The notes under the pieces are model-generated. The model searched no databases and was not told where the DNA came from. It worked only from the letters and a program-made list of their open reading frames with translations. From Candidatus Faecalibacterium intestinavium (lineage in GTDB: Bacteria; Bacillota; Clostridia; Oscillospirales; Ruminococcaceae), in the NCBI GenBank assembly GCA_018883885.1, contig JAHLFH010000012.1, positions 45,064-109,063 of the forward strand: a DNA stretch of 64,000 bases, written 5' to 3'. How positions within the stretch are numbered: the stretch's first letter is position 1; the number at the start of each line of letters is the position of its first letter. Positions 49,727 to 53,762 of the stretch are shown here, piece by piece. A program made the position numbers and the translations under genes.

Positions 49727-51115
49727 ATGAAAGATGCAAAGCTCAAGACGGTTTATGTTTGCTCCAACTGCGGCGAAACCAGCCCGCGGTGGATGGGGCG
49801 CTGCCCCAGCTGCGGCAGCTGGAATACAATGAACGAGGATGTGGTTGCCGAACCGGCCAGGTCTTCCTCTGCCCGGGCGGTTCCCCGACAGGAGGGAAGC
49901 ACCCGTCTGACGGCGCACCGGCTGGCGGAGATTCGCAGCACAGAAGAAAAAAGCCGGATCGTGACCGGCATCTCAGAATTGGACCGCGTGCTGGGCGGAG
50001 GGATCGTCCTGGGCGGCGTTGTGCTGCTGAGCGGCGAACCGGGCGTCGGCAAATCCACTATGCTGTTACAGCTGTGCGGGGCTATCTCCGATCAGCACAC
50101 CGTCCTTTATATCACTGGCGAGGAATCGGAACGGCAGGTCAAGCTCCGGGCCAACCGGCTGAATCTGTCCCAACAGAATATCTATCTCGCCGCAGAAAAT
50201 GATGTGGACGAAATCTGCGGCCTGATTGAAAAGGAAAAGCCGGAGCTTGTGGTCATCGACTCCATTCAGACCATGCGCTGCGCGGATATTTCTTCCTCAT
50301 CCGGCACCGTCAGCCAGGTCAAGGAGAGCACCGCCCGTCTGTTGGCTGTCGCCAAAAAACAGGAAGTCCCCATGTTTATTGTGGGCCACGTCAACAAAGA
50401 CGGCGCCATTGCAGGCCCCAAGGTGATGGAGCATCTGGTCGATACCGTGTTGTATTTTGAGGGCGACCGCATGCTGCCTTACCGCATTTTGCGGGCGGCA
50501 AAAAACCGCTATGGCTCAACGAACGAGCTGGGGATGTTTGATATGACCGGCCGTGGTCTGACGGAAATTGCCAATCCTTCTCAGATGCTGCTGGAAGGCC
50601 GTCCGCTGGGGGTTTCCGGCAACTGCGTTGCCTGCACGATGGAGGGTACGCGGCCTATCCTGAGCGAGATTCAGGCGCTGGCTGCCAAAACCAATTTTCC
50701 GTCTCCCCGTCGCACTTGCAGCGGGTACGACTACAACCGCATGAATCTTTTGATTGCCGTGCTGGAAAAGCGGGCAGGCTTTGCTTTCGGCAGTCTGGAC
50801 GTTTACCTGAACGTCATCGGGGGAATCACCCTTCGGGACACGTCCTGTGACCTTGCGGTTTGTCTGAGCATGGTTTCTTCTCTTTTGGACCGTCCGGTGC
50901 ATGATAAGCTTCTTGCGGTCGGCGAGGTCGGTCTTGGAGGAGAAATTCGCAGTGTCCCCAGCCTGGAGCAGCGGCTGCGGGAGGCAGAGCGGATCGGCTT
51001 TGAGCAGGCCGTCATCCCAAAGCACAGTCTGGCCCGGCTGAACCCGGCCGATTATCCCGGGCTCAGACTAATCGGAGCCGCTTATATTTCCGACGCTATT
51101 TCGGTTTTAAAGTGA
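49727..51115 (+). CDS. radA: DNA repair protein RadA/Sms
   Basis: CSNCG..CPSCG zinc finger, GEPGVGKST, IDSIQ, KNRYG, Lon-like C-terminus. Confidence 0.97.
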   Translation: MKDAKLKTVYVCSNCGETSPRWMGRCPSCGSWNTMNEDVVAEPARSSSARAVPRQEGSTRLTAHRLAEIRSTEEKSRIVTGISELDRVLGGGIVLGGVVLLSGEPGVGKSTMLLQLCGAISDQHTVLYITGEESERQVKLRANRLNLSQQNIYLAAENDVDEICGLIEKEKPELVVIDSIQTMRCADISSSSGTVSQVKESTARLLAVAKKQEVPMFIVGHVNKDGAIAGPKVMEHLVDTVLYFEGDRMLPYRILRAAKNRYGSTNELGMFDMTGRGLTEIANPSQMLLEGRPLGVSGNCVACTMEGTRPILSEIQALAAKTNFPSPRRTCSGYDYNRMNLLIAVLEKRAGFAFGSLDVYLNVIGGITLRDTSCDLAVCLSMVSSLLDRPVHDKLLAVGEVGLGGEIRSVPSLEQRLREAERIGFEQAVIPKHSLARLNPADYPGLRLIGAAYISDAISVLK

Positions 51116-51134: not shown

Positions 51135-52406
51135 ATGTCCATTTATCTGAACGAAAAGAACCCCTCCCAGCACAAGCCTTTTCGGGATGCTTCGCCCGAT
51201 ATCGTGGAGTATGTGCGGTATCTGGAAGTCATTGCGGGCAAAAGCGCCAACACAGCGTTTAATTATTATTGCGACCTGCGCAGCTTCAGCCGGTTTATGA
51301 AACAGCGCCGCGGCCTTGTGCCGGAGGACGAGCCCTTTCAGCAGATCGACCCCAAAGGTCTGGATACCGCCTTTTGGGGCAGCATCACGCGGGAGGATAT
51401 CTATGAATATCTCTATTTTTTAAACCAGACCTGCGGCAACAAAAAATCCTCCATGGCGCGGCGTCTGGCCAGCCTGCACGGATTTTATGATTATATGGTC
51501 AACCAGGTCAGCCGCCTGGAACAGGACCCAACTTCGGCGGTGCGCCCGCCCAAGCTGGACAAAGTTCTGCCAAAATATCTGACCGAGGATCAATCCATGG
51601 ATCTGCTGGAGAGTACGCGTTTTCACAGCGATTTTCCGGAGCGGGATTACTGCATGGTCGTTCTGTTTCTGAACTGCGGGATGCGTCTGGCGGAATTGGT
51701 GGGAATGAATCTGGAGGATATTGATCTCGCCCAAAGGCAGGTCCGTCTCTTTGGCAAGGGCCACAAGGAGCGGATGATTTATCTCAACGACGCCTGTGTA
51801 GAAGCGCTCCAGCGCTATCTGGAGAAGCGGGGAAGTCTGGAAGGGCTTTCCCCGAAAGAACGGGCGGTGTTTGTGACACGGCGGCGAAAAGAACGGATTT
51901 CTCACCGTCGGGTGGAGCAGCTGGTCACCGGCGCAATGAAAGCCGCCGGATTGAAAGGCTTTTCCACCCATAAGCTGCGCCATACTGCGGCCACGCTGAT
52001 GTACCAGACCGGCAATGTGGACATCCTGACCCTGAAACAGCTTCTGGGACACAGCAACGTTTCCACCACCCAAATTTACACCCACTTGCAGGAATTTCAG
52101 GTGCGTTCGGCCATTGAGGCAAATCCGCTGGGCGGGGTCAGCGCCAGGCGTACAGCCCTAAAAAAAGAGGACACGGAACAGGACAACTTGTATACAACGA
52201 TGCAGGAGGATTCGGAGCTGCATTTTGCTGCGGACCGTTCTACATCCGATCCTGTCAAGACAGCGTCGCTTGCCGAGGAGAACCTGACCGGAGATCAAAC
52301 CGACGGCCAGCCGATGGCCGCCCTGAACGGTGCTGCCAAAGAGGGATTCGGATTGGATTCTGAAACGCTGGACTCGAAAGCAGACAAAGAACTCCAAGGC
52401 AGCTGA
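51135..52406 (+). CDS. Xer-type tyrosine recombinase with acidic C-terminal extension
   Basis: RRLASL, LPKYL, GMRLAE (R), GKGHKER (K), HKLRH, LLGH, TTQIYTH (Y). Confidence 0.92.
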   Translation: MSIYLNEKNPSQHKPFRDASPDIVEYVRYLEVIAGKSANTAFNYYCDLRSFSRFMKQRRGLVPEDEPFQQIDPKGLDTAFWGSITREDIYEYLYFLNQTCGNKKSSMARRLASLHGFYDYMVNQVSRLEQDPTSAVRPPKLDKVLPKYLTEDQSMDLLESTRFHSDFPERDYCMVVLFLNCGMRLAELVGMNLEDIDLAQRQVRLFGKGHKERMIYLNDACVEALQRYLEKRGSLEGLSPKERAVFVTRRRKERISHRRVEQLVTGAMKAAGLKGFSTHKLRHTAATLMYQTGNVDILTLKQLLGHSNVSTTQIYTHLQEFQVRSAIEANPLGGVSARRTALKKEDTEQDNLYTTMQEDSELHFAADRSTSDPVKTASLAEENLTGDQTDGQPMAALNGAAKEGFGLDSETLDSKADKELQGS

Positions 52407-52439
52407 ACCAGACTGCATAAATCATACATGATGCAAAGC

Positions 52440-52469
52440 AACAGCCGGACAAACCATCCGGCTGTTTTT
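52440..52469 (+). terminator. Terminator of the xer gene
   Basis: AACAGCCGGA/TCCGGCTGTT plus T run. Confidence 0.8.
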
Positions 52470-52542
52470 GGCGTCTGGAACGCAGCAGACTTCAAAAAGC
52501 AAAGCTCCACCACAGAAACAATCTGCCGCAAAAAGCTTCGGC

Positions 52543-52594
52543 GGCAAAGAAACGGTTCAGGCAAAGAAACGGTTCAGGCAAAGAAACGATTCAG
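52543..52594. repeat. 17-bp tandem repeat, three copies
   Basis: GGCAAAGAAACGGTTCA twice, then GGCAAAGAAACGATTCA. Confidence 0.95.
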
Positions 52595-52769
52595 ATATTT
52601 GCAAGAAAGACATTCCGGTTAACGGAAATTGTCACCAAACTCATTGCAAATTGAATGAAAATAACCCAAGGCAGGATCTACGGAAAATCAGCTGGTCGAA
52701 GCAGCCAAAAGGCCGCTGAAAGCCAAAAGGTGCCAAAATTTGAAAAAAGGGCCATTTTCTCTCCCCTCT

Positions 52770-52797
52770 ATTTCGCATAACGTACATTATACGAAAT
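52770..52797. other. dif: dif-like site-specific recombination site
   Basis: ATTTCGCATAA-CGTACA-TTATACGAAAT; 11-6-11 architecture; at the gene-strand switch; next to the xer gene. Confidence 0.8.
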
Positions 52798-52807
52798 ATA
52801 CCACTTG

Positions 52808-52841
52808 AAAAACAGAGGCCCCTCCTCCGGTTTGGCCTCTG
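52808..52841 (-). terminator. Terminator of the amidase gene
   Basis: CAGAGGCC/GGCCTCTG stem with A5 on the left (T5 on the minus strand). Confidence 0.7.
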
Positions 52842-52907: not shown

Positions 52908-53762
52908 TCATCCTTCCAGAGGCGCAACGCCAAAATAGTTGCAGATGGCACGATAGTATGCCTGCGCTGCGCGTTCCACACCATCGGCATCGCCAAAGCG
53001 ATCCACATCGTCCGCATTCGTTACAAAACATTGCTCCACCAGGACAGCCGGGCACTCGGCTTCTTCCAGAATCGTAAATGTGCCTTCCTCCCGAATCTGA
53101 GTGTTATTGGCTTCTGCAAGGATTTTCTCGTTTTCTTCATTATAATAAAGATACCGGATGCCTCCCTGGCCGCGCAGGCTGTTCCCGGCCGCTTCCATCT
53201 CCGACGCCAGTTTTTGTGCAAACGTCAGGCTTTCCGTATGCCAGGTCCTTCCCGGAGTCACCGGATAGCATTCAAAGCCGGATGCCTCTGTGGAATTGGG
53301 GCTGGAGTTCCCGTGAATGGACAACAAAAGATCCGGATTCTGCCGGTTAGCATACTCTGCCCGTTCGATGGGCGCTGCGGTGCTGTCGTAGGATTCTCTT
53401 GTTTCCACGGGAATAAAGTTTTCATCATTTTCCAGCAGCCGAATCAGCGCCTGCGCTGTGGCTGCCGTCATATCCCGCTCCAGGATCACACCAACCGCCC
53501 CCGGGTCTGCCCCGCCGTGTCCTGCGTCTACTGCGATGGTATAAGGCGGTTCCGGTCTGGCCGCTTCGGCGGATTCTCCAGATGCTTTTATCGGCCATTC
53601 AAACGGCAGCCATACGGGCTTGAAAGCGAGAGTATACCCCGCCGCCGCAATAAGAATCAGCACTGCTGCCGCCGCAAGCGCCCGTCGAAGATAATGTACC
53701 TGCTTTTTCCGAGAGGAATGTTTATGTTGGGAGTGTCTTTTATGTCTGGATCTCGTGCTCAT
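52908..53762 (-). CDS. N-acetylmuramoyl-L-alanine amidase (Amidase_3), membrane-anchored
   Basis: VDAGHGGADPGA, E, LLSIHGN, PAVLVEQCF; basic N-terminus plus TM. Confidence 0.9.
   Translation of the reverse strand: MSTRSRHKRHSQHKHSSRKKQVHYLRRALAAAAVLILIAAAGYTLAFKPVWLPFEWPIKASGESAEAARPEPPYTIAVDAGHGGADPGAVGVILERDMTAATAQALIRLLENDENFIPVETRESYDSTAAPIERAEYANRQNPDLLLSIHGNSSPNSTEASGFECYPVTPGRTWHTESLTFAQKLASEMEAAGNSLRGQGGIRYLYYNEENEKILAEANNTQIREEGTFTILEEAECPAVLVEQCFVTNADDVDRFGDADGVERAAQAYYRAICNYFGVAPLEG

Follow-up and report, generated by a model that had tools for sequence, protein, structure and literature searches.

The window analysed here, a 64,000-nucleotide stretch of the genome of Candidatus Faecalibacterium intestinavium, contains a gene for a member of a clostridial clade of Xer tyrosine recombinases and, downstream of it, a near-symmetric site of 28 bp. 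There is a high probability, judged from the sequence and its comparison with related genomes, that this is the dif site of a Faecalibacterium single-recombinase system, in which the neighbouring enzyme is predicted to bind and recombine both arms, likely under the control of FtsK. A role in recombination fits because the site is present in a single copy, is located at the terminus, and has a strictly 6-bp spacer that is conserved and oriented. It also coincides with a switch in gene direction, in GC skew and in the polarity of a strand-biased motif, one copy of which abuts the site.

The recombinase, the predicted dif site and their neighbours

The recombinase gene (51135–52406, plus strand) encodes a protein of 423 amino acids and starts 19 bp past the stop codon of radA. 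Its core (residues 1–332) is conserved, whereas the last 90 or so amino acids form an acidic tail of variable sequence. The protein contains the core-binding and catalytic domains of a tyrosine recombinase (Pfam PF02899 and PF00589) and its R-K-H-x-x-R-H-Y set; all six catalytic residues (R184, K208, H279, R282, H306 and Y315) are kept and are invariant in an alignment of 35 orthologues. The acidic carboxy-terminal tail (window positions 52131–52406) is specific to the recombinases of core Faecalibacterium, its length varying between 36 and 94 codons in relatives. Scores against the family models are all under the cut-off: 213 bits against a cut-off of 335 for XerC, 201 against 330 for XerD, 187 against 220 for XerA and 136 against 267 for XerS. 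The comparison with XerH gives only 46 bits by sequence, which leaves the protein outside that family. The predicted fold (pLDDT 83.6) resembles XerA, XerD and XerH, with XerA as the best structural match, while structural alignments with Cre show 16–19% identity.

Two quick tree searches, performed without bootstrap and with XerH, XerL and the named streptococcal XerS left out, place the recombinase inside a clostridial clade (SH-aLRT 96–97) separate from XerC and XerD, the kind of phylogenetic comparison that the first-pass annotation had called for. XerS-family proteins, represented by three genomes of one non-clostridial family, are located on the recombinase's side of the XerC/XerD split (SH-aLRT 98 in one tree, 86–88 in the other) on a very long branch, and their kinship with the recombinase is unsure. 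The recombinase tree is nested by genus, family and order, with a long branch leading to core Faecalibacterium. Homologues of 36–42% identity, annotated as XerC, are present on large Oscillospiraceae replicons and on clostridial plasmids. The assembly contains two further PF00589 genes, neither with a site nearby, which from their translations we take to be transposon- and phage-type integrases.

The predicted dif site (52770–52797), recognised by its uniqueness, its conservation and its arm-matrix score, has the sequence ATTTCGCATAA-CGTACA-TTATACGAAAT. It begins 364 bp 3' of the recombinase stop codon, in non-coding DNA, and has an 11-6-11 layout with arms that are inverted-identical at 10 of 11 positions and an asymmetric spacer. 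Both this layout and the distance of about 360 bp to a complete Xer-like recombinase agree with the first-pass annotation. No second copy was found at up to seven mismatches in the 1.76-Mb assembly, which is 80.6% complete. Among the 136 palindromes of 11-6-11 layout in the assembly with at least 10 of 11 arm positions matched, this is the sole one with a TAA..TTA core. With a matrix built from the orthologous Faecalibacterium sites the arms score 41.9, the runner-up place in the assembly scoring 6.6. In either orientation, 20 of the 28 bases are identical to E. coli dif. The likeness to loxP that had been remarked on is real at the sequence level: positions 52784–52795 are the same as the first 12 bases of the right half of P1 lox. 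Only core Faecalibacterium shows this likeness, which is probably convergent, and the site there may be a cryptic target of Cre.

Upstream, the radA/sms gene (49727–51115, plus strand; TIGR00416, 566 bits) is present in 66 of the 73 genus-level loci searched, and is likely co-transcribed with the recombinase gene. Beyond the site, a convergent N-acetylmuramoyl-L-alanine amidase gene is located (52908–53762, minus strand; PF01520), present in 55 of the 73 genus-level loci; mutS2 is also among the neighbours. A 10-bp hairpin with a T run (52440–52469, plus strand), read from the sequence and absent from the consensus scan, is likely the terminator of the recombinase gene. On the other side of the site, the terminator scan identified a terminator-like hairpin of the amidase gene (52813–52829, minus strand) with a G-rich stretch directed at the site, which in relatives is often exactly GAGAAGGG. 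Rfam gave no match between positions 50000 and 54000. Between the recombinase terminator and the site, a short unit of about 17 bp can be seen by eye to occur three times in tandem (52548–52597). No phage or transposon genes had been reported near the site, and none was seen among the open reading frames between 40 and 64 kb, six of which were scanned against Pfam.

In some Faecalibacterium, genes for a YhfC-type protease, an SRPBCC-type protein and other small proteins lie between the recombinase gene and the site (L268:4100–6500, L308:5300–7300). A dif-cassette array was considered for these loci and rejected, because no secondary or degenerate sites are present around the inserted genes.

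Conservation and chromosomal position

The predicted conservation of the site beside orthologues of the recombinase is borne out in 64 of 69 Faecalibacterium loci, where it is always located downstream, between 110 and 2,834 bp past the stop codon, and where one of its arms is more variable than the other. Of the five misses, four are at loci where the available sequence extends only 0.3–1.4 kb downstream, and at the fifth the site is present about 4 kb off. The recombinase is matched in 290 of 300 family genomes, mostly at 40–50% identity. Of 201 Clostridia genomes, 146 have a match at E ≤ 1e-45, and almost all of these have a single one. In loci drawn non-randomly from the top of these match lists, an 11-6-11 palindrome is present near the orthologue in 67 of 76 for the family and 43 of 69 for the class, compared with 1.8% and 1.2% of resampled sequences; in the two sets together its position is almost always upstream. 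When the pattern of the window's site was searched for throughout the family with three mismatches allowed, the outcome was no better than the control, since the inner arm bases differ in relatives, and these locus-by-locus scans took the place of that search.

Outside core Faecalibacterium, the palindrome is upstream of the gene in all 67 site-bearing family loci. The statement that the site lies beside the gene thus stands, while its downstream placement belongs to core Faecalibacterium. In four basal members of the genus the site is of intermediate type and is located upstream of the gene, and the branch leading to the core members is long. It is therefore likely that core Faecalibacterium acquired secondarily both the placement downstream and those inner-arm bases that resemble canonical dif and loxP.

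The arms vary by lineage yet stay symmetric, with 19 different perfectly symmetric arm sequences. In 110 sites, 165 matched double changes were counted versus 43 asymmetric positions; arm palindromy of at least 9 of 11 was the detection rule, which partly builds symmetric changes in, and related sites are not independent, so these counts are supportive and not a statistical test.

In the 109.5-kb contig from which the window was taken, the cumulative GC skew peaks 813 bp from the site; genes to its left are on the plus strand and genes to its right on the minus strand. The contig extends just 11.6 kb to the right of the site, in an assembly that is 80.6% complete. The expectation of a single copy at the skew extremum is matched, with one copy in the assembly. 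Each of five closed Faecalibacterium genomes contains exactly one exact match to the site pattern. When these five are taken together with four closed or two-contig genomes of the family, the site is located at 0.475–0.545 of the chromosome from dnaA in all nine. Among 30 genomes hand-picked for long contigs, skew is positive to the left and negative to the right of the recombinase gene in 23 regions and fails to do so in seven. In one of the failures (G454), gene and site are 14.7 kb apart, and it is at the site that the skew peaks. Another failure is the closed genome G127, whose gene is located at 0.695 from dnaA (G127:C1:2089497–2090423), with no skew switch, and where the site was not found; with the pattern used, neither was it found in G064 (0.7 Mb) or G188. 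The closed genome G539 has a second near-match palindrome with two mismatches (G539:C1:2244890–2244915), 28 kb from the main site.

A reversed polar motif next to the site

Two base pairs off the left arm, a polar motif points outward from the site, AGGGGAGAGA (52758–52767, minus strand), with AGGGGAG at its core (52767–52761). This motif, a non-permissive KOPS-type candidate from its conservation and polarity counts, is absent from the first-pass annotation. The Faecalibacterium flank reads TCNCTYCCCT, with the CCC invariant in 63 of 63 sites, and the family consensus is AGGGGAG at positions +3 to +9, reading outward. In the family, with the side chosen by G count, GGGR is present within 9 bp of the site on one side in 53 of 67 loci and on the other side in one. 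Several other clostridial families have a weak flank or none. A role as ribosome-binding site was rejected: the ATG found after the window's flank lacks conservation, and 15 of 67 family loci have the flank directed away from the gene.

AGGGGAG is also the most strand-biased heptamer of the genome, at 90:13. When contigs are oriented by their own GC skew, an orientation that favours G-rich words, the count is 90:12. Compared with the words of the same composition (n = 21), it is first in the set oriented by GC skew and second in the set oriented by the site. Its bias persists whichever way the genes run (45:4 in leading and 22:4 in lagging genes, and 23:4 in intergenic DNA); the bias of AGGAGG, by contrast, flips with gene direction. 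The gene-strand control recovered 16 of 16 known genes. In 40-kb site-oriented regions of 11 other family genomes, AGGGGAG ranks first of 12,386 heptamers, at 64:1, and in six closed relatives it is found at 24:2. The contig of the window has 25 copies, of which 23 point toward the site from the left and one from the right; the flank copy alone points away, and without it the count is 24:0.

The available text of PMC3384302 gives a leading-strand skew of at least 90% and at least one copy per 40 kb as the criteria for KOPS in the dif region, and AGGGGAG has both properties, making it a candidate KOPS-type motif by sequence. Like KOPS and the streptococcal SRS, as described in the accessible sections of PMC3384302 and PMC2965235, it is G-rich and biased to the leading strand, with a skew of at least 90% and more than one copy per 40 kb near the site. 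It differs from them as a word, and in that one copy naturally points away from dif at a distance of 2 bp, while the non-permissive motifs placed beside dif in the available parts of these two papers are engineered. Of 63 Faecalibacterium loci, 25 have on the far side of the site, at a distance of 23–60 bp from the arm, a G-rich word that is exactly GAGAAGGG and points toward the site; it was found in none of the windows further out at these 63 loci. Some family genomes (G187, G124 and L008) have G-rich outward motifs on both sides of the site.

A single non-permissive KOPS next to dif had no significant effect in the E. coli assays, three being needed, according to the available text of PMC3384302, and an engineered triple non-permissive KOPS lowered recombination at difSL in that of PMC2965235. 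The single KOPS being ineffective, a gating or docking role of the flank is put forward here as a hypothesis. It is conceivable, if somewhat doubtful, that the reversed motif supplies the sidedness given by XerD in E. coli, through gating of FtsK or docking of FtsK-gamma.

Alternative readings, related systems and proposed mechanism

The site might be a dif used by two recombinases, the present protein being a diverged XerC counterpart and an XerD-like or other protein its partner. XerD is retained in 116 of 201 Clostridia, where it scores 257–376 bits with TIGR02225, and XerC is above cut-off in none, so that this protein may fill the place of XerC. In the family, XerD was found in 6 of 150 genomes, and in several members it lies within about 1–17 kb of the orthologue. 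In four family genomes the site is near xerD. Where the family keeps xerD (L127, L128, L129 and L132), this gene is often no more than about 1–2 kb from the site and the clostridial recombinase, and at the one locus inspected (L129) it comes after spoIIM. Two enzymes may therefore act in those organisms, and the likeness to E. coli dif and the more variable arm are in keeping with such a pair. Yet an XerD-type protein was found in none of 57 genomes of the genus, closed ones included, the top TIGR02225 score of 207 bits being that of the orthologue itself, and no XerC was found in the genus either. No second Xer paralogue was found in the genus searches, as the first-pass annotation supposed. 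Other Xer-like genes of the genus are sporadic, and the inspected one sits between hsdS genes (L262:332–3749), an arrangement that by similarity is present in four closed Faecalibacterium genomes and is likely a specificity shufflon. Furthermore, the sites are symmetric even where XerD is present, and neither tree groups the protein with XerC or XerD. A pair of recombinases is thus very improbable for the Faecalibacterium site.

The case for a single enzyme is strong, from sequence comparison, in this genus and family. Four of five family genomes picked for a single hit (0.7–1.3 Mb, 97–100% complete) have just one PF00589 gene. For the class, where XerD often persists, one enzyme may or may not be enough. 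Of the self-contained one-enzyme cassette originally proposed, the part concerning the genus and family is supported, but the module itself spans the Clostridia, where XerD is often present.

Recombination at the terminus might also proceed independently of FtsK, as with XerA or Cre, the flank being a relic or serving another protein. The near-perfect symmetry of the site, its likeness to lox and the position of XerA as top structural match would suit this explanation, as would the copies of the site in phages. The family-type pattern is present in viral contigs with a 6-bp spacer in 50 cases (23 clusters), with a 5-bp spacer in one and with a 7-bp spacer in four. The carriers of the family-type 28-mer (L146–L195) are tailed phages; their sites have mostly other spacers, and the flank is present in one of 50 by a strict rule. 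Most of the viral sites have no close recombinase homologue within 3 kb, and four of the eight inspected adjoin terminase genes. The Faecalibacterium-type pattern was matched in nine viral contigs. Three GenBank records labelled as bacteriophage that contain the site (L520, L521 and L522) were set aside as fragments of Faecalibacterium chromosomes that span the locus at 97–99% identity. Phages without the flank also fit a chromosome-only role of FtsK, however. FtsK-gamma was found in all 61 genomes of the family sample, and the flank consensus is the same word as the KOPS-like motif that converges on the site. FtsK-independent recombination is therefore very unlikely.

A different function would be that of an operator, for autoregulation of the recombinase gene or for another dimeric regulator, with the palindrome not being mainly a crossover site. 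Of the 67 family loci, 22 have a sigma-70-like promoter directed at the gene within 70 bp upstream of the site, compared with two on the other strand, and a similar role was speculated for difSL in the available text of PMC1914069. In these relatives, where it lies between promoter-like sequence and gene, the site may also act as an operator. Core Faecalibacterium, however, keeps the site 110–2,834 bp past the stop codon, removed from any promoter role. The single copy at the terminus, the oriented, conserved spacer and its strict 6-bp length, which most of the viral sites share, also speak against it, and a function that is mainly that of an operator is highly unlikely.

That the locus is the remnant of a mobile element, with an integrase and its att site, is scarcely credible: gene-plus-site modules do look like integration modules and the homologues of 36–42% identity occur on plasmids, but the recombinase is nearly always single in the 146 Clostridia genomes that have it and not patchily distributed, its tree follows genus, family and order, its neighbours are housekeeping genes, and neither mobility genes nor a second att copy that would make an attL/attR pair was found.

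The single-recombinase dif reading can be compared with the known systems. XerCD/dif of E. coli, which has CodV/RipX as its counterpart in Bacillus subtilis, has in common with the Faecalibacterium module the 11-6-11 layout, the 20 identical bases, a single copy at the terminus, FtsK-gamma and converging polar motifs. It is characterised by two paralogues, different arms and an unlinked site, and none of the three is found in Faecalibacterium. In XerS/difSL of streptococci and lactococci, as described in the accessible parts of PMC1914069, PMC2965235 and PMC5357621, a single recombinase gene and its site are likewise linked where the skew switches, and the Faecalibacterium gene and site similarly form one terminus module. 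In those parts difSL is 31 bp long, imperfect and immediately upstream of its gene, whereas the Faecalibacterium site is 28 bp long, near-symmetric, of 11-6-11 layout and downstream, and is abutted by a natural reversed guide motif. XerH/difH, XerL of the Legionellales and archaeal XerA/dif also resolve dimers with a single recombinase, according to the available sections of PMC5357621, PMC9765430 and PMC2958812; XerA/dif has the same 11-6-11 layout, and XerA is described there as acting without FtsK. Cre/loxP of phage P1 similarly combines a single enzyme with symmetric arms, the Faecalibacterium arms being shorter. From its sequence and arrangement, the module is predicted to act like XerS/difSL, while the membership tests leave it outside XerS, XerCD, XerH and XerA.

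By analogy with XerCD and XerS, an odd number of crossovers between sister chromosomes would lead septal FtsK to track along AGGGGAG-type motifs to the terminus. Four identical recombinase subunits would then bring two sites together in a tetrameric synapse. Strands would be exchanged in two rounds, at the 6-bp spacer's edges, freeing the monomers, with the direction set by the asymmetric spacer. The reversed motif would gate FtsK such that it arrives from the far side or, alternatively, FtsK-gamma would be docked beside one of the subunits. A wider proposal is advanced only tentatively: that the Clostridia possess an undescribed third branch of Xer systems, with one enzyme and a symmetric dif, that in the Ruminococcaceae the reversed motif 2 bp off the arm replaces the XerD subunit for control by FtsK, and that unrelated tailed phages borrow the site without the motif.

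No description of this clostridial system was found in the open-access full-text literature, subscription papers falling largely outside the scope of the search, and the available parts of PMC8138268, PMC7062461 and bioRxiv 10.64898/2026.07.08.737213 contain nothing on a clostridial site. In the genome-wide dif survey of PMC3025954, as far as its available text goes, two Clostridium genomes are without prediction and four predictions are 137–175 degrees off the skew switch. The resolution of chromosome dimers in Clostridia thus looks unresolved in the literature searched, and a concrete site, an enzyme and a candidate guide motif can now be named for Faecalibacterium and many of its relatives. 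Asymmetry is held to be necessary for controlled synapsis in the available text of PMC2965235. The combination of a symmetric site with one enzyme is a known problem, and the reversed motif makes one solution to it testable. In draft genomes the site would mark the terminus, and it could be used as a neutral integration locus for engineering a genus in which this is difficult.
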